DNA from: a virus | DNA length: 64,000 nucleotides | Virus record (IMG/VR): IMGVR_UViG_3300025519_000001 | Span: 64,001-128,000 of that record | Reading direction: 5' to 3' (one strand) | Shown here: positions 5,643 through 12,369 of the stretch, piece by piece | Layout: every line of letters starts with the position of its first letter | Position numbering within the stretch: position 1 is the first letter of the stretch | Notes under the pieces: model-generated | Database searches by the model: none | The model's input: the letters and a program-made list of their open reading frames with translations, nothing else | What the model was told of the DNA's origin: nothing | Position numbers and translations under genes: made by a program

Positions 5643-6145
5643 TTTCTATTATTGTAGCGATGGATCGAAATAAATTAATTGGAAACAATGGGCAACTTCC
5701 ATGGCACATTCCAGCCGACTTAAAGTATTTTAAAGAGAAAACTAAAAATAAAATAATTGTTATGGGAAGAAAAACTTATGAGTCAATTAGAAGACCATTG
5801 CCTAATAGAGTCAATGTGGTTATCTCAAAAAATATCGAATTCATAATTAAAAATAAGGATAAGGGGTTATTCGTTTATGATTCAATTGACCAATTTCTAA
5901 AAAGCAATATACATAAAGATCGAGAAGTATATGTGATTGGTGGAGCAAGAATCTACGCTCAATTCTTACAAATAGCTGATAAGCTATTGATTACTCATAT
6001 TGATTACGAGTTTAAGGGGAATACTTACTTCCCTAATTATGATGAGAATGACTTCTCTATTACTTCGTCCATAAAAATAGGCGCAAGCGAAAATGATTCA
6101 AAATACAATCTTACTTTCGCGGAGTACAGCAGAATAAAAAAATAA
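5639..6145 (+). CDS. dfrA: Dihydrofolate reductase
   Basis: [40 protein letters not shown]; overlaps the thyA stop. Confidence 0.96.
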
Positions 6146-7255: not shown

Positions 7256-7918
7256 ATGGCAAAGAAAAAATATAGAATACAAAAGGCTCGAATTAAGGAA
7301 GCAGGGAAACTTCTTTCTATTATAACTGGAATTAATTTTGGAATCAGTGGTAGTAGTTATAAAAATGGCATATGGTATTGTAATTTTTATGCTGAACTAG
7401 ATGTTCCACATTGGTTTGATACAACTATTCGTGATACAGCAGAAGAAGAAATAAGGCCATATATTGAAAGGCAATACAAGAAAATTATTGATGCACTCAA
7501 AAGTAAATTTGGAGAAATCGAACATTCTCCATCAGAACATTGGTACAATTTCACTTATTATCTTCCTCCAGAAGGTGTTGCTCAACCTGAAATTTGGGAT
7601 CATGTTAATGGGGTTTTTCAAAAAATAAAAGATGCAAGACTACTAACAGAAAAAGAAATAGAAGAAAATTTGAAGCGATGGGAAGAAATTTGTCAAGATG
7701 AACCAAACAATAGATATTCTTTATTCCATTTAGAACATTTAAGATGGAGTAAAGATAACTGGAAAAAATATTTTAAGTTTGTTGGTGGTTCACCATTTAC
7801 AGATGAATTATTTGTTCAAATTCGTTATGGCGACATGATTAGAATGCGAGGAGAATTTTCGTTTAAAGCTTTTGGTGAATTTGATCTGTTGAAAGAAGAA
7901 TATATGTATTATATTTAA
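7256..7918 (+). CDS. Hypothetical protein
   Basis: 220 aa ORF with a gaggtg RBS. Confidence 0.75.
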   Translation: MAKKKYRIQKARIKEAGKLLSIITGINFGISGSSYKNGIWYCNFYAELDVPHWFDTTIRDTAEEEIRPYIERQYKKIIDALKSKFGEIEHSPSEHWYNFTYYLPPEGVAQPEIWDHVNGVFQKIKDARLLTEKEIEENLKRWEEICQDEPNNRYSLFHLEHLRWSKDNWKKYFKFVGGSPFTDELFVQIRYGDMIRMRGEFSFKAFGEFDLLKEEYMYYI

Positions 7919-7968
7919 AAATAAAAAAGGGGATTGTATTTCAATTAATAAAAGGAGTAATATTTAAG

Positions 7969-8310
7969 ATGTATTTCTACGAAAAGGAATTAGCGCGAAT
8001 TAAAAATGATTGGGAGAAAACACACCCTGAACGAGTAAAAATATTCTCTCAACAATATTTAGAAAATGGCTTTTCAGATGAAGACACGTGGAATTTAGAT
8101 ATTCATCTTGCAAAACTAATTTACCCTAGACTCGTTCGATTTAAAGAAATAGCTTGTGTTGTTATAGACTGGCCTTTGAATGAGATTATAGAAGCATTTA
8201 GATTAATTGTTGATGAAAATGTAGATTTCTTTAACGAACCCGAAAATTACGAAAAAATAAAGAAAGGACTTAAATTATTTGCAGAGTATTATTTTAAATT
8301 GTGGTGGTGA
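7969..8310 (+). CDS. Hypothetical phage protein
   Basis: 113 aa ORF with RBS; ends LFAEYYFKLWW. Confidence 0.75.
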   Translation: MYFYEKELARIKNDWEKTHPERVKIFSQQYLENGFSDEDTWNLDIHLAKLIYPRLVRFKEIACVVIDWPLNEIIEAFRLIVDENVDFFNEPENYEKIKKGLKLFAEYYFKLWW

Positions 8311-8360
8311 TATAAAAAAGTATAGCTAAAAAGGGATGTAATTTAAAATTAAAATTCACC

Positions 8361-8378
8361 ATAAAAGACACGTTTCAT
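8361..8378. repeat. ATGAAA-N6-TTTCAT dyad at the left border of the CRISPR cassette
   Basis: ataaaa-gacacg-tttcat. Confidence 0.6.
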
Positions 8379-8400
8379 ATGCTAATATTCAAACTTTAAA

Positions 8401-8443
8401 GTGCGAATCCCAAGCGAACATAAAAACTCTAGGAGATTCGCAC
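8401..8443 (+). promoter_or_regulatory. CRISPR leader inverted-repeat motif, type I-C-like (copy 1)
   Basis: gtgcgaatc-N25-gattcgcac; near-identical copy at 10500-10542. Confidence 0.7.
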
Positions 8444-8452
8444 CAAATTTAC

Positions 8453-8622
8453 AGGGCGACTCGGCGTCCAAAATCGAGAAAGCATGTGAATTTACATATG
8501 ATTTACCTATTTCACATGCACTCGATAACGTATCTATATTTTAAAATGTGCTTATAGATACGACCATTCTCGTTTTTATAGGAGAATGCACTTTGTGCGA
8601 ATAAATATGCACACTTTTTGCT
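8453..8622 (+). ncRNA. Cas12f tracrRNA (copy 1)
   Basis: gggcg-actcgg-cgtcc hairpin, atcgag..ctcgat stem, two more stems, anti-repeat cactttgtgcgaat (8589-8602); architecture matches my recollection of the As/OsCas12f1 tracrRNAs. Confidence 0.8.
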
Positions 8623-8835
8623 GTTGCAATTCGCACATGCACATAAAGTGTGAGAAGGGAGACTAAGGCTAAAGTCTTTGCTAGGCTAGTTGCAATTCGC
8701 ACATGCACATAAAGTGTGAGAATGGGAGAATGTAGATCGTGACTCTGCCTTATAGTTGCAATTCGCACATGCACATAAAGTGTGAGCTAGATCGACTATA
8801 TATGCGGAGCTTAAAAATTATTGCAATTCGCACAT
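8623..8835 (+). CRISPR. CRISPR mini-array: 3 identical 32-nt repeats, a degenerate 4th, and 3 spacers (34, 34, 33 nt)
   Basis: GTTGCAATTCGCACATGCACATAAAGTGTGAG at 8623-8654, 8689-8720 and 8755-8786; partial repeat at 8820-8835. Confidence 0.95.
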
Positions 8836-8850
8836 ATATAATGTTAAAAT
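8821..8850 (+). promoter_or_regulatory. Putative cas12f promoter overlapping the terminal repeat
   Basis: TTGCAA-18 bp-TAAAAT with an extended TG; RBS gagggg follows, then ATG at 8868. Confidence 0.5.
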
Positions 8851-8867
8851 AATGAGGGGTTTTATAT

Positions 8868-10478
8868 ATGCCTAAAAAAGAAAAAGATGATAATAAGATT
8901 GTGAAAATTGTAAAAGTAGAGATTGATAGGATTGTTGGAATAAAAGAAGATCATTTTAATGTTATAGCAAAAAAACTTCAAAGCGAATCTCTTGATATGC
9001 GAAATCAATTTATCGCAGAGTTATGGAAGTGGAATAATTTTGAAGATGACTATAAAACAAGATACTACTCTAATCCAGATACAAAGGAATATTTATTTAA
9101 TAAAAAGAAAGGGAGTCCATATGGATCAATAAGGGGGTATGCTGAGGACGTAGTGAAAGAAAATAAAATATCGTATTCTGGTATAATTAGTGCAAACACA
9201 AATAAAGCTCTTAGTAGATGGAATAAATTCTTAAAAGATCGCGAAAACTATAGAGAAGGAAAATATCCAGCAATACCATGTTTTACAAGACCAGAAATTC
9301 TATTTCGTGCTTCTGATACAGAGATAATTAAGAAAGATGCAAAATATGAATGCAAATTACCTTTACTTGGTAGAGATGGAGTTAAAATTGCTGATCTTCT
9401 AGTTAAAAAATATGAAGAAGAAAAACGCACTGAAAAACTAAGAAGAGAAGAATTAAAAAAAGAATATAAGAATCTTGAAGAAAAAGGCGTAGAAATAACC
9501 AAAGAAATTAAAGATAAACTGTGGATTAAAGTTAAAAATAAAATTAAAGAAAAGAGTGAAGAAGAACTTAAAAATGATGAACCGATTATCACCTCTAGTA
9601 GCTATCAAGCTATTTTGAAACTATCTGATACATATGATAATACAACAATCATAAACAGAATTATTAATGGCGAATATAAAATGGGTGAAAGCAGTTTACG
9701 AAAATTAAAAAACAAATGGATACTATTTATCACATACAGTTTTGAAAAGCAGTCAAAGGGGCTTGATCCAAATATAATTTTGGGTGTAGATATAGGAGTT
9801 AATGATCCAGCACATATGATAGTTTATGATTCCAATAATAAAAAATGGGGGAAAAAGAAATGGATTGATGGTAAAGAAATCGAAGCGTTTCGTAAGAAAC
9901 GTGATGTTATGAAGAGATCAATACAAAAACAAGCTGCTTATTGTGGAGAAGGAAGAAGAGGACATGGGAGGAAAACAAGAATGAATGCGGTTGAAAAGAT
10001 TGATGGAATGATTAAGAGATTTAAAAATACATGCAACCATAAATATTCTAGATTTATTGTTGATTTTGCTTTAAAAAACAATTGTGGAGTAATTCAGATG
10101 GAAAACTTATCAGGAATTGCTGATGGAGAAAAGAAAGCAACATTCTTGGGTGATTGGACTTTTTATGATTTGCAACAAAAAATAAAATATAAAGCTGATG
10201 AAGTTGGAATTAAAGTTATATTTATTAAACCAAATCACACGTCTGCAAGGTGTAGTAATTGTGGTTTCATTCATGATAATAAATTAAAAGATATTTGGAG
10301 ACCAGAAACAAAACAATTCAAATGTATGAAGTGTGACTATGGACATAGGCGATTTGTCCACGCAGATGATAATGCAGCTAGGAATATTTCGCTTCCAGAT
10401 ATCGAAAATATTATCGAAGAACAACTAGACCTCCAAAACAAAGAAGCAAAACATGCATTAAAGTATATTGCAGAATAA
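8868..10478 (+). CDS. cas12f: Type V-F Cas12f1 (AsCas12f1-like, TnpB-derived) RNA-guided nuclease, 536 aa
   Basis: RuvC-I GVDIG (D308), RuvC-II QMENL (E412), CSNC..CMKC zinc finger, RuvC-III HADDNAARNI (D500), GRRGHGR and WTFYDLQQKIKYKA blocks; adjacent to array and tracrRNA. Confidence 0.9.
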   Translation: MPKKEKDDNKIVKIVKVEIDRIVGIKEDHFNVIAKKLQSESLDMRNQFIAELWKWNNFEDDYKTRYYSNPDTKEYLFNKKKGSPYGSIRGYAEDVVKENKISYSGIISANTNKALSRWNKFLKDRENYREGKYPAIPCFTRPEILFRASDTEIIKKDAKYECKLPLLGRDGVKIADLLVKKYEEEKRTEKLRREELKKEYKNLEEKGVEITKEIKDKLWIKVKNKIKEKSEEELKNDEPIITSSSYQAILKLSDTYDNTTIINRIINGEYKMGESSLRKLKNKWILFITYSFEKQSKGLDPNIILGVDIGVNDPAHMIVYDSNNKKWGKKKWIDGKEIEAFRKKRDVMKRSIQKQAAYCGEGRRGHGRKTRMNAVEKIDGMIKRFKNTCNHKYSRFIVDFALKNNCGVIQMENLSGIADGEKKATFLGDWTFYDLQQKIKYKADEVGIKVIFIKPNHTSARCSNCGFIHDNKLKDIWRPETKQFKCMKCDYGHRRFVHADDNAARNISLPDIENIIEEQLDLQNKEAKHALKYIAE

Positions 10479-10499
10479 ACTTTTTATACATTCTCTCTG

Positions 10500-10542
10500 G
10501 TGCGAATCCCAAGTTCACATAAAATCCCTAGAAGATTCGCAC
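10500..10542 (+). promoter_or_regulatory. CRISPR leader inverted-repeat motif, type I-C-like (copy 2)
   Basis: gtgcgaatcccaagttcacataaaatccctagaagattcgcac. Confidence 0.7.
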
Positions 10543-10558
10543 TTCTAATAAACATTAA

Positions 10559-10811
10559 GGGGCGACTCGGTAGAATGGAACATCTTAGTCAGTCATCCGT
10601 CCTAAATCGAGATAGTGCGGTTATACATATTTAACTTAACCGTTCACACTCGATAAGGTATCCCGAAAGGGTGAAACCCTACTCACAAAATCCGAGTAGG
10701 CACTTCATACAGAATATTTATGTATATTTATTCACACTTTCCGCAGTTGCAATTTATATGTACGTATGAAGTGTGAGAAAATACTAGATTAAGTCTTGTT
10801 ATGAAATTAGC
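10559..10811 (+). ncRNA. Second tracrRNA fused to a single variant repeat (10746-10777) and flanking guide (natural sgRNA/omegaRNA-like)
   Basis: Same stems as copy 1; anti-repeat cacttcatac (10701-10710) is perfectly complementary to gtatgaagtg in the variant repeat GTTGCAATTTATATGTACGTATGAAGTGTGAG. Confidence 0.8.
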
Positions 10812-10953
10812 TAAAGATATTACTTCGGCTCTGATTGAGCGATTCCCCCTAGAGTATGAAAAAGAAAATATTAAAATAAAAAATATTAAAGATAAAGATT
10901 TGGTTAAACGAATTAAAAAGAAAGGGTTAAGCGTAGAGTTGATCACAAAATAA
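10777..10953 (+). pseudogene. 5'-truncated ORF remnant or small ORF (..MKLAKDITSALIERFPLEYEKE..ELITK*)
   Basis: Open frame starts at the repeat 3' end; the ATG at 10801 has no RBS. Confidence 0.45.
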
Positions 10954-10956
10954 AAC

Positions 10957-10974
10957 ATGAAAGATGCATTTCAT
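10957..10974. repeat. ATGAAA-N6-TTTCAT dyad at the right border of the CRISPR cassette
   Basis: atgaaa-gatgca-tttcat. Confidence 0.65.
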
Positions 10975-11070
10975 TAAATGATGTGATGAAGCTTGAGAAT
11001 AAAAGTTATTGTTACAATTGAACTATTAAAATAAAAAATATCAAGATAATTCGAGAGGAGTATAAACAAA

Positions 11071-11244
11071 ATGGATAAATACTCTCACTTAGACAAGGAA
11101 TATCTCGAATACTTAAAGGAGGGCTACTCTCAAAGATACATAGATCCAGACGATCCTTGGTTTACGGACTATGAACTTGAAGATAAGTACCTAGACGGAT
11201 ATGGCTTTGAAAATAAAAATAAAATAATACATAAAGGAGAGTAA
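11071..11244 (+). CDS. Small acidic hypothetical protein (57 aa, not in the ORF track)
   Basis: gaggag RBS; MDKYSHLDKEYLEYLKEGY...HKGE*. Confidence 0.6.
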   Translation: MDKYSHLDKEYLEYLKEGYSQRYIDPDDPWFTDYELEDKYLDGYGFENKNKIIHKGE

Positions 11245-11250
11245 AATAAA

Positions 11251-11645
11251 ATGGATTTGGGGTTAAAAAAGGCGGAAGACACGAACGCTGGATTTCGTTT
11301 GCCCTAAAAAAAGCAAAATACAGTAAAGTTCCACACTACAAACACTGTGCTGTTGTAATCAAGGGTGGAAGGCCAATTAGTATAGGAATTAATAAAACAA
11401 AAGCGGGATGTCTGGGAGATCCAATTTATTCTTTCCGCCAATGGCACAGTGAATTTGATGCCCTTTGTAACCTTGATGAGTCTCAAATTAAAAATGCTAT
11501 CTTGTATGTCGCAGGATGGACAAAGGGAGGTAATATTGCAAAATCCAAGCCATGCCCTCATTGTCAGGAGTATTTAAAAAAATTACCGTTAAAATCTATC
11601 GTATATTCAATGCCAGATGGAAGCTATGAAGAAATGGTTATATAA
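11251..11645 (+). CDS. Cytidine/dCMP deaminase-family zinc protein that needs a -1 frameshift (or a frameshifted pseudogene)
   Basis: Frame 11250-11645 encodes WHSEFDA and SKPCPHC (HxE/PCxxC) but has no start codon near its 5' end; ATG at 11251 with a strong RBS reaches it via A AAA AAG (11265-11271). Confidence 0.75.
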
Positions 11646-11664
11646 ATATTTTGGGGTGAAATTC

Positions 11665-11970
11665 ATGAACGACAAAAAAAGACTAGAGTCAATTATTAAA
11701 GCAATAGACGCAATTGGTAAAGATACACTTATTCCAAGACAACATGAACAATTATTTGGAATCCTATTAGCGCAACATATGATTTCCAATGGCTTTCCCG
11801 AAGAAGTTGTTGATCCTGACTTGCTAATGTTATCTATTCGTGATGCTTATCATGAATATAATTGGATAAAAGAAAAGATTAAAAACCCAACAATTGAGAA
11901 TGTATTTACTCCAAAATACATTGAAGAATTAAAGAAAAAAGGTTGGATTTATGAACCAAATAAAGATTGA
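11665..11970 (+). CDS. Hypothetical protein
   Basis: ORF 11617-11970; likely start ATG 11665 after ggggtg. Confidence 0.7.
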   Translation: MNDKKRLESIIKAIDAIGKDTLIPRQHEQLFGILLAQHMISNGFPEEVVDPDLLMLSIRDAYHEYNWIKEKIKNPTIENVFTPKYIEELKKKGWIYEPNKD

Positions 11971-12369
11971 GTGGATTATTCCTACGAAATTGCGATTTTA
12001 TTGGAGGTGTTTAAAGTGAATTTGTGGTTTACAGCAAATGATTATTATGGTCAAGAAGTCAATTTTACATTTGATGATATTAATTGTGTATATAAAAACG
12101 ACGGAATTATGTATGTTGGAAATCCAATTCCTATTCCAATTTTGATGAATACAATAAAATTAAAAAATTATGAAGCAAATAAATTAAATGAATTCACTTT
12201 TCGTTTTTATGATGGAGTCAACTATAAACAAGGAGTATGCAAAAATATAGTTGCAGTTGATTTACTACAGGCTAAAGACTTTGCATATCAAATTGTTGAA
12301 TTATTAGGTTCGTTGAATAGTAGTGATTGGGACAAAGATACAATTCGATATGAATATATAAGCCAATGA
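11971..12369 (+). CDS. Hypothetical protein
   Basis: 132 aa ORF; the true start may be the GTG after the internal ggaggtg. Confidence 0.65.
   Translation: MDYSYEIAILLEVFKVNLWFTANDYYGQEVNFTFDDINCVYKNDGIMYVGNPIPIPILMNTIKLKNYEANKLNEFTFRFYDGVNYKQGVCKNIVAVDLLQAKDFAYQIVELLGSLNSSDWDKDTIRYEYISQ

Follow-up and report, generated by a model that had tools for sequence, protein, structure and literature searches.

A probable second guide-RNA module with a diverged tracrRNA–repeat pair in a phage-borne Cas12f cassette

The region 10500–10777 of the window, by which we mean the whole 64,000-nucleotide stretch of viral DNA analysed here, is probably a guide-RNA module, complete and the second of its kind in a phage type V-F1 Cas12f cassette. 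Such a module would combine a type I-C-style leader, made up of a hairpin called H0 and the leader end TTTxGCx, with a tracrRNA that sits within this leader and with at least one 32-nt repeat, and its tracrRNA would run through H1 with a CUC loop, a two-tier H2, H3, H4, the anti-repeat and a weak terminator. Taken as a whole, the segment of about 8379–10777 is identified from its sequence as a phage-borne type V-F1 (AsCas12f-like, formerly V-U3) CRISPR-Cas12f cassette, in which a single cas12f gene has a tracrRNA-plus-repeat module on each side, the two being diverged but structurally matching. We call the upstream module unit 1 and the downstream one unit 2. The original prediction had described unit 2 as a second tracrRNA–repeat pair; the present analysis adds that it appears to be a whole second CRISPR locus with a leader of its own, conserved and live, and not a dead copy.

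The cassette, its nuclease and its leaders

The window belongs to a 154,759-bp virus genome that is estimated to be 96% complete, and it is AT-rich, with a G+C content of 33.6%. Replication genes, namely a polynucleotide kinase/RNA ligase and PolIII alpha, lie near the cassette. The nearest isolate, an Alicyclobacillus phage, is distant, with 60% identity on PolIII alpha. The coordinates of the features are collected in Table 1. The extent of the cassette, 8379–10777, was set on the basis of the left branch point between two variants at 8378. This branch point coincides with the end of an imperfect dyad at 8361–8378. A scan of 7500–12000 against Rfam returned nothing relevant, and a comparison with the related locus L004 showed no synteny of the left neighbours.

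The C-terminal half of the Cas12f protein matches the solved Cas12f-type chains 8j3r, 8j12, 7wju, 8dzj and 9nzq with E values of 1e-63 to 1e-66; of these, 7wju and 8dzj are taken here to be AsCas12f. In an alignment with Cas12f relatives, the RuvC D-E-D triad (D308, E412 and D500) and the zinc-finger cysteines (C462, C465, C486 and C489) are invariant. A small size, a split RuvC with the D-E-D residues and a zinc-ribbon TNB domain, by which a V-F1 effector is recognized, are thus all found in the 536-aa protein. As in other V-F1 loci, an array adjoins the gene (array 1), and the anti-repeat of unit 2 can form an 11-bp duplex in cis with the 3' part of its repeat. A single-protein scan of IMG/VR gave no relatives of this Cas12f; the relatives used here were collected via the protein, with an alignment query, and via a DNA motif.

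Two more TnpB-like genes of 354 and 428 aa are present in the phage outside the window (C1:59896-60960 and C1:31000-32286), each with a structured 3' region of its own, and their identity to Cas12f is 24–32% over parts only. We considered whether unit 2 could serve either of them, and this option was rejected on account of that low and partial identity and of their own, unrelated 3' regions. It can also be mentioned that 8574–8580 is connected to 10753–10759 via a 6-nt microhomology, TTTATA, in contigs of two sequencing runs, with a depth of 74 in X3 and of 2 in X2. This 8580-to-10759 join would delete the unit-1 anti-repeat, array 1, cas12f and most of unit 2.

Table 1. Positions of the cassette features in the window
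Feature	Positions	Strand	Remarks
Left edge of cassette	8379..8400	+	X3 contigs shared with a cassette-less variant branch after 8378
Candidate promoter element, extended -10-like TGcTAATAT	8380-8388	+	inferred by eye; promoter scan made no call
H0-1, type I-C leader motif (43-nt inverted repeat)	8401..8443	+
tracrRNA 1	8454..8602	+	H1 8454-8469, H2 8473-8526, H3 8529-8562, H4 8565-8588, anti-repeat 8589-8602; fold z = -7.2
Terminator-like hairpin and T run, then leader end	8594..8622	+	leader end TTTTTGCT directly before repeat 1
Array 1	8623..8851	+	three 32-nt repeats (8623, 8689, 8755), spacers of 33-34 nt, degenerate terminal repeat from 8820
cas12f, 536 aa	8868..10478	+	PF07282 (Cas12f1-like TNB domain), E 5.6e-17
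H0-2, second copy of the leader motif	10500..10542	+	37/43 identical to H0-1
tracrRNA 2	10560..10717	+	H2 10606-10654, H3 10662-10671, H4 10678-10700, anti-repeat 10701-10717
H1 of tracrRNA 2 (arms)	10560-10564 / 10598-10602	+	loop ACTCGG 10565-10570, 27-nt insert 10571-10597
Weak hairpin and T-rich tract, then leader end	10718..10745	+	leader end TTTCCGCA
Repeat 2 (variant repeat)	10746..10777	+	one copy in the window genome
3' stump (58 codons) of a DUF1256/YyaC-like gene	10777..10953	+	aligns to P0098 residues 70-125 and P0100 residues 159-217
Sequence in spacer position, predicted guide	10778..10811	+	within the truncated DUF1256 gene

Both units begin with the H0 motif, a 43-nt hairpin of the form GTGCGAA-N29-TTCGCAC. 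We assign it to type I-C leaders because it stands before I-C-type arrays in Lachnospiraceae and in many IMG/VR contigs. A pattern scan of IMG/VR gave 71 copies, only 11 of them near a Cas12f/TnpB relative, and 39 of the 50 distinct copies are followed by an array some 110–135 nt further on, mostly with repeats of 32–33 nt ending GTGGATTGAAAT/C, which is a type I-C signature (PMC8406640). In a scan of genomes, H0-1 was found to be 40/43 identical to a motif in Enterocloster citroniae that lies 116 nt upstream of an I-C-type array, with no cas genes within the 6 kb upstream of that leader; the motif is 37/43 identical in Blautia schinkii, and a longer variant occurs in Herbinix. Some jumbo-phage contigs carry 4–6 copies of H0, each before a mini-array (L248, oriented position 5881, and L249:6549 are among the motif sites).

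The I-C leaders end with TTTTGCT before the repeat, and in the window the tracrRNA appears to be embedded between H0 and the leader–repeat junction. Counted from the last nucleotide of H0, the repeat lies 179 nt away in unit 1 and 203 nt away in unit 2, compared to ca 110–135 nt in I-C arrays; the fixed I-C spacing is not kept, and the tracrRNA fills the extra length of 40–80 nt. The longer spacing may impair the use of the leader by a host integrase. Another option considered was that H0 is a 5' stem of the tracrRNA, and this was rejected since the motif is found mostly before I-C arrays without Cas12f and is absent from the AsCas12f1 scaffold.

There is no cas1 or cas2 in the phage genome, and we therefore propose that new spacers would be inserted by the Cas1-Cas2-Cas4 proteins of a host I-C system, recruited via the mimicked leader. 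It may reasonably be inferred that the I-C adaptation proteins of a Lachnospiraceae host would be used on the phage arrays. Indirectly, this would agree with the spacer polymorphism seen at both arrays.

Two paralogous tracrRNAs and their repeats

The ca 200 nt before each repeat can be aligned between the two units and fold into the same set of helices, in the order H1 (GGGCG/CGTCC), two-tier H2, H3, H4, anti-repeat, weak hairpin, and a T-rich tract ending TTTxGCx. The leader end TTTCCGCA of unit 2 also precedes the repeat of the related locus L002. The compensatory changes described in the original prediction are all found. The repeat and anti-repeat remain paired in both units, CATAAAGTG with CACTTTGTG (including one G-U) in unit 1 and TATGAAGTG with CACTTCATA in unit 2, and between the units this duplex differs by two double compensatory changes and one change from G-U to A-U. 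The H2 stems still pair, as GCATGTGAA/TTCACATGC (8482–8490/8511–8519) in unit 1 and as GCGGTTA/TAACCGT (10617–10623/10637–10643) in unit 2, and so do the H4 stems, CATTCTC/GAGAATG (8565–8571/8582–8588) and CCTACTC/GAGTAGG (10678–10684/10694–10700), in which two base pairs have changed on both sides. The ACTCGG loop is retained at 8459–8464 and 10565–10570, and the 27-nt insert of the second copy is indeed present in its H1. No significant fold of its own was found for this insert, which directly follows the loop that is a candidate for pseudoknot formation.

The same architecture is present beside Cas12f genes that are 35–52% identical (L002, L003, L004, L032, L043, L061, L077 and L016), with stem sequences that are quite different. 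Since alignments of the whole units with MAFFT misplace H1 and H3, the covariation was counted on sub-alignments. For H4, a sub-alignment of nine sequences shows double changes in 7/7 pairs, with 95% of the cells paired; not one out of 500 shuffles scores as high as the real alignment, and when the partners are slid only 22–41% are paired. For H1, double changes are seen in four of the six pairs in the sub-alignment of relatives. The two tracrRNAs are thus paralogues that keep one architecture through compensatory changes.

A pairing of the H1 loop with the last 4–5 nt of the repeat, of at least 4 bp, is possible in every unit compared. In the window, the pseudoknot between the loop and the terminal TGAG would have 4 bp, one of them G-U. 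The candidate partners differ together between lineages, L043, L061, L077 and L016 among them: CUCG/CUCA-UGAG, UUCC-GGAA, UUUCA-UGAAA, CUUA-UAAG and UUCG-CGAA. When G-U pairs are allowed, the cross-matrix of loops and repeat ends is not clean. These data are consistent with the pseudoknot, and the covariation is suggestive.

The repeats of the two units match at 23/32 positions. As had been seen before, positions 1–9 and 24–32 are identical and 9/9 differences are transitions. Divergence by transitions only is a feature of the whole family, the repeats of L002 and L032 differing by 12/12 transitions. The pattern appears to reflect a conserved purine/pyrimidine order in this family of repeats and not anything peculiar to the window pair, about which in particular it therefore carries little information. 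The centre of the repeat (8632–8644 and 10755–10767) consists of alternating pyrimidines and purines; the R/Y pattern of this tract is kept across the family while the bases vary by transitions only. No further copies of either repeat or tracrRNA are present in the 154.8-kb genome, and a local all-against-all search of the array units gave only repeat–repeat matches. In a search of metagenomes with the degenerate repeat pattern, only the L002 contig is real among the matches listed, the others being chance. A 13-nt part of repeat 2 (GTATGAAGTGTGA) recurs in the zinc-finger codons of cas12f at 10324–10336, probably by chance, with E 0.04 within the genome.

The original prediction drew two things from the pairing, namely that both scaffolds are under selection and that the two pairs may be orthogonal. 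The former is supported, as discussed below, while the latter is not supported by the predicted duplex energies. Anti-repeat 1 is predicted to bind repeat 1 with −20.0 kcal/mol and repeat 2 with −19.9 kcal/mol. For anti-repeat 2, the predicted energies are −18.6 kcal/mol with repeat 2 and −12.7 kcal/mol with repeat 1, and for the core duplex −16.5 and −7.0 kcal/mol, respectively. Every change in the repeat is a transition, and because of this anti-repeat 1 can pair with repeat 2 via G-U wobbles. As anti-repeat 1 would bind both repeats equally and only anti-repeat 2 discriminates, any discrimination is predicted to be one-way, and mutual orthogonality of the two pairs is not predicted.

That both scaffolds are under selection is indicated by the family-wide covariation, by a deficit of substitutions in unit 2, by a polymorphism in unit 1 that preserves a pair, and by the turnover of spacers behind repeat 2. 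The deficit was found by comparison with L001, a contig from another sample whose Cas12f is 98% identical to that of the window. Between the two there are 28 changes in the 1611 nt of cas12f, of which 19 are synonymous (dS 0.063) and which extend as far as 10431, compared to one change in 299 nt of unit 2, at 10545 in an unpaired linker. At the rate given by dS, 18.7 changes would be expected in unit 2 (P = 1.4e-7); measured against all sites in the last 600 nt of cas12f, the deficit has only P = 0.07. The low divergence could in principle mark a recent recombination tract rather than constraint. We read these numbers as purifying selection on unit 2. In unit 1, the polymorphism 8483 C>T converts a C-G pair to U-G, with the pairing kept.

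The population evidence comes from short Logan contigs of other bioreactor metagenomes, partly of low depth (X2 and X4 at 2–3.5). In run X3 the spacers of array 1 are different. An X2 contig has the order cas12f 3' end, tracrRNA 2, repeat 2, a 34-nt spacer and repeat 2 again, and an X4 contig has tracrRNA 2, repeat 2, a different spacer of 33–34 nt and repeat 2. In four runs and in L001, contigs break at 10777/10778. Since repeat 2 carries different spacers in other populations, unit 2 is a live array that has one repeat in the window genome. No protospacers were found for any true spacer, and spacers 1 and 2 are without an IMG/VR match.

Double modules at one cas12f gene are found also in other phage loci, including some where Cas12f is only ca 45% identical. 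In L016 (IMGVR_UViG_3300033753_000334), a tracrRNA and an array lie on both sides of a gene for a 422-aa Cas12f (L016:960-1470 and L016:2790-3140); H1, H2, H4 and the anti-repeats of these modules covary, and the repeats end with GTGCGAAG on one side and with ATGCGAAG on the other. In L003 the upstream module is complete, and a downstream one begins where the contig ends. In this downstream unit (L003:4695-4772), the leader hairpin leads almost straight to a GCCGAG stem, apparently without an H1 hairpin as far as the contig reaches, which is 35 nt further. A different arrangement is seen at L014:300-800, where two short tracr-like units lie in tandem upstream of one cas12f, each with its own array and with different repeats. 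The leader hairpin of L014 directly precedes the start codon.

The junction behind repeat 2 and the rival explanations

Repeat 2 is followed directly by the stump of a DUF1256/YyaC-like gene. The stump aligns from its first codon with P0098, a 128-aa fragment, and with P0100, a full-length protein of 221 aa, and the break lies inside the domain. To the right of the junction, from 10778 on, an X3 contig has the sequence of the window, and to the left of that position it reads ...GGTTCTTC. Its in-frame translation is ...GFLEYMVLQ, which is the family consensus, followed across the junction by NTRLSLVM. It follows from this read-through that a co-occurring variant has an intact DUF1256 gene, known from 30 letters of one X3 contig, and that TTC immediately precedes the site at which the repeat junction lies in the window. 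TTC is the type I-C PAM, and it occurs at 2% of the sites in the window. It also fits the PAMs of Cas12f, which are T-rich and located 5' (PMC7229846). As the predicted guide matches the intact sibling allele next to TTC, a crRNA made from repeat 2 and its flank would target cassette-free siblings.

Neither another DUF1256 nor another match to the guide was found in the phage's own genome. The pattern of TTC plus guide has no match in IMG/VR, the guide flank has none in JGI metagenomes, and there are no relatives of P0098 in IMG/VR. In one low-depth contig of X4, a 35-nt piece, 10778–10812, is inverted and lies 37 nt away from 10833–10974. The junction between repeat 2 and the DUF1256 gene could have arisen from spacer–protospacer recombination or from true homing. 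An assembly that walked through a spacer is less likely, since the X3 unitig is unbroken.

In the explanation that we prefer, one Cas12f dimer would load either tracr:crRNA pair. Read-through of tracrRNA 2 into repeat 2 and the adjoining DNA would yield a crRNA, whose guide (10778 onward) would match the intact DUF1256 allele beside 5'-TTC and act in phage–phage conflict. The sequence divergence of the two modules may limit recombination that deletes cas12f.

A different possibility, which we consider unlikely, is that unit 2 mainly makes one fixed guide from the flank of the cassette, in the manner of a TnpB omega RNA. Cas12f would then cut sibling genomes that have an intact DUF1256 gene, i.e. 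an empty site, and repair would copy the cassette in. This would fit with the start of unit 2 being 22 nt after the cas12f stop, which is the position of an omega RNA, with the repeat ending exactly at the truncation point of the gene, inside the domain, and with the X3 contig that spans the intact gene and has the infrequent TTC directly 5' of the junction, as well as with the left branch point at 8378 and with the absence of any other target in the phage's own genome. However, ordinary spacer–repeat units or different gene starts are found behind repeat 2 in other samples, and the locus therefore behaves as an array with variable trailers. Passive spacer–protospacer recombination would moreover give the same junction, the phage genome has no Y1 transposase, no transposon ends are seen, and the intact allele is represented by only 30 letters of one contig. 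It is a tentative idea, of low probability, that the whole cassette is a self-propagating homing element among sibling phages, whose outermost repeat is joined to what is left of the gene displaced by the cassette. The transcript of tracrRNA 2 and repeat 2 would in that case be a built-in guide against the intact, cassette-free allele with its 5'-TTC, cutting at co-infection would let recombination copy the cassette into the rival genome, and spacer–protospacer recombination would be the route to new junctions. If true, this would mean that a bona fide CRISPR system retains or re-invents the homing logic of TnpB.

The junction itself might be an assembly chimera, in which 10778–10811 is the real spacer of a mini-array and the assembly has walked from it into the gene of a sibling phage. 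The segment has the length of a spacer, X4 contains the 35 nt 10778–10812 as a separate piece in the opposite orientation, none of the listed X2–X4 contigs bridges 10777/10778 into a flank of the window type, and L001 stops at 10777. We nevertheless find this doubtful, as the X3 unitig 10778–10934 is unbroken, with no branch near 10812, and its depth of 103 is close to the 95 of the left flank, as expected if both variants share the sequence from 10778 onward; also, no joint from ca 10812 back to 10746 is reported. Even in the case of a chimera, unit 2 would be a real module, and the sequence would be a guide directed at the allele of the sibling. We give very little weight to the notion that unit 2 is a decaying, functionless relic, left by duplication of the module or by recombination with a relative whose module lies downstream. 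It has a single repeat in the window genome and a 27-nt insert in its H1 loop, a variant that deletes 8581–10758 exists, and since the module is upstream in some relatives and downstream in others, recombinants with both would be expected. On the other hand, all helices are intact and carry compensatory changes, one substitution is seen where ca 19 would be expected at dS, spacers are gained and lost behind repeat 2 in other samples, and the double architecture recurs with a Cas12f that is only ca 45% identical. Least probable of all is that unit 2 makes a regulatory cr-like RNA, similar to tracr-L or scaRNA, which by partial complementarity would repress a phage gene, either cas12f or a different one. 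Stand-alone repeats reportedly have such roles in other CRISPR types, according to a preprint, but at other genomic sites the guide matches 11 nt at best, and none of these best matches lies near the locus or its promoters or is anchored at the PAM-proximal end. The second guide-RNA module thus stays our preferred reading of 10500–10777.

As a kind of system, the cassette is already known, both as a V-F1 Cas12f and in its likeness to viral mini-arrays. What is newer is the pairing of diverged modules, the position of the tracrRNA in a leader of I-C type, and the fusion of the repeat to a displaced gene. In the literature searched, there is no mention of a Cas12f with two tracrRNAs. Among the CRISPR nucleases in use, those of the Cas12f group are the smallest, and efforts to engineer them are directed mainly at their long tracrRNAs. 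The window appears to offer a natural pair of diverged scaffolds for one enzyme, L016 being a second such pair, and together these pairs may serve as a ready-made map of the scaffold positions that may vary. It is also conceivable that a phage without adaptation genes updates its arrays by means of a tracrRNA placed inside a copy of the host I-C leader. Should the junction indeed act as a guide directed at siblings that lack the cassette, it would connect CRISPR arrays with recombination mediated by spacers and with the homing behaviour of the TnpB ancestors.

Comparison with known systems

The scaffold of AsCas12f1 from Acidibacillus sulfuroxidans (V-F1/V-U3) was compared with the window by eye, motif by motif, as printed in bioRxiv 10.1101/2022.10.20.513037. 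The C-terminal half of the window Cas12f matches Cas12f-type chains with E of ca 1e-64, and the scaffolds share the order of the elements and the junction motifs TAA-xCGAGA-AGTGC, CTCGrTAAGGTA, TGAAAC, an ACAAAnnCC loop and an anti-repeat that starts with C(A/G)CTTCA. In both, the final nucleotides of the repeat have their complement in the H1 loop. Over the 3' part of H2, H3, H4 and the anti-repeat, the identity with the AsCas12f1 scaffold is ca 69%, and the differences in H4 are compensatory. From these motifs, unit 2 (AAGGTA ... TGAAAC) appears to be the more canonical scaffold and unit 1 (AACGTA ... ACGACC) the derived one. As in the phage, adaptation genes are lacking in V-U3 loci (PMC7229846). 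In contrast to AsCas12f1, the window Cas12f has 536 aa, with an N-terminal half that is longer and poorly alignable, the system is phage-borne with two tracrRNA–repeat modules per gene, a leader of type I-C style surrounds the tracrRNA, and unit 2 has the 27-nt insert in H1.

Mini-CRISPR arrays carried by viruses serve in virus–virus conflict (Medvedeva et al. 2019, PMC6858448; reviewed in PMC11656645). With these the window shares one or few spacers, a leader and repeats modelled on those of the host, the lack of adaptation genes, and spacers aimed at close relatives. The mini-arrays use the effector of the host, whereas the phage studied here supplies Cas12f and the tracrRNAs itself and seems to have taken no more than the logic of the leader from the host I-C system.

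The omega RNA of TnpB (IS200/IS605) resembles unit 2 in that the scaffold is located directly 3' of the nuclease gene, H0-2 beginning 22 nt after the stop, and in that the guide comes from DNA abutting the element at its end; furthermore, the TnpB family is ancestral to Cas12f. The window system differs in having neither TnpA nor transposon ends (LE/RE), in that its scaffold is split into tracrRNA and repeat with a leader of its own instead of being a single fused RNA, and in that repeat 2 takes ordinary spacers in other populations.

Finally, in CRISPR-associated transposons (V-K and I-F3), an atypical repeat outside the main array is followed by a fixed guide for the homing site (reviewed in PMC11656645). 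As in these delocalized crRNAs, the variant repeat of the window matches the array repeat in part and lies outside the main array. The transposons work with a transposase and with either a single tracrRNA (V-K) or no tracrRNA at all, while the variant repeat of the window has a matching tracrRNA paralogue and its effector is a nuclease with an intact active site.
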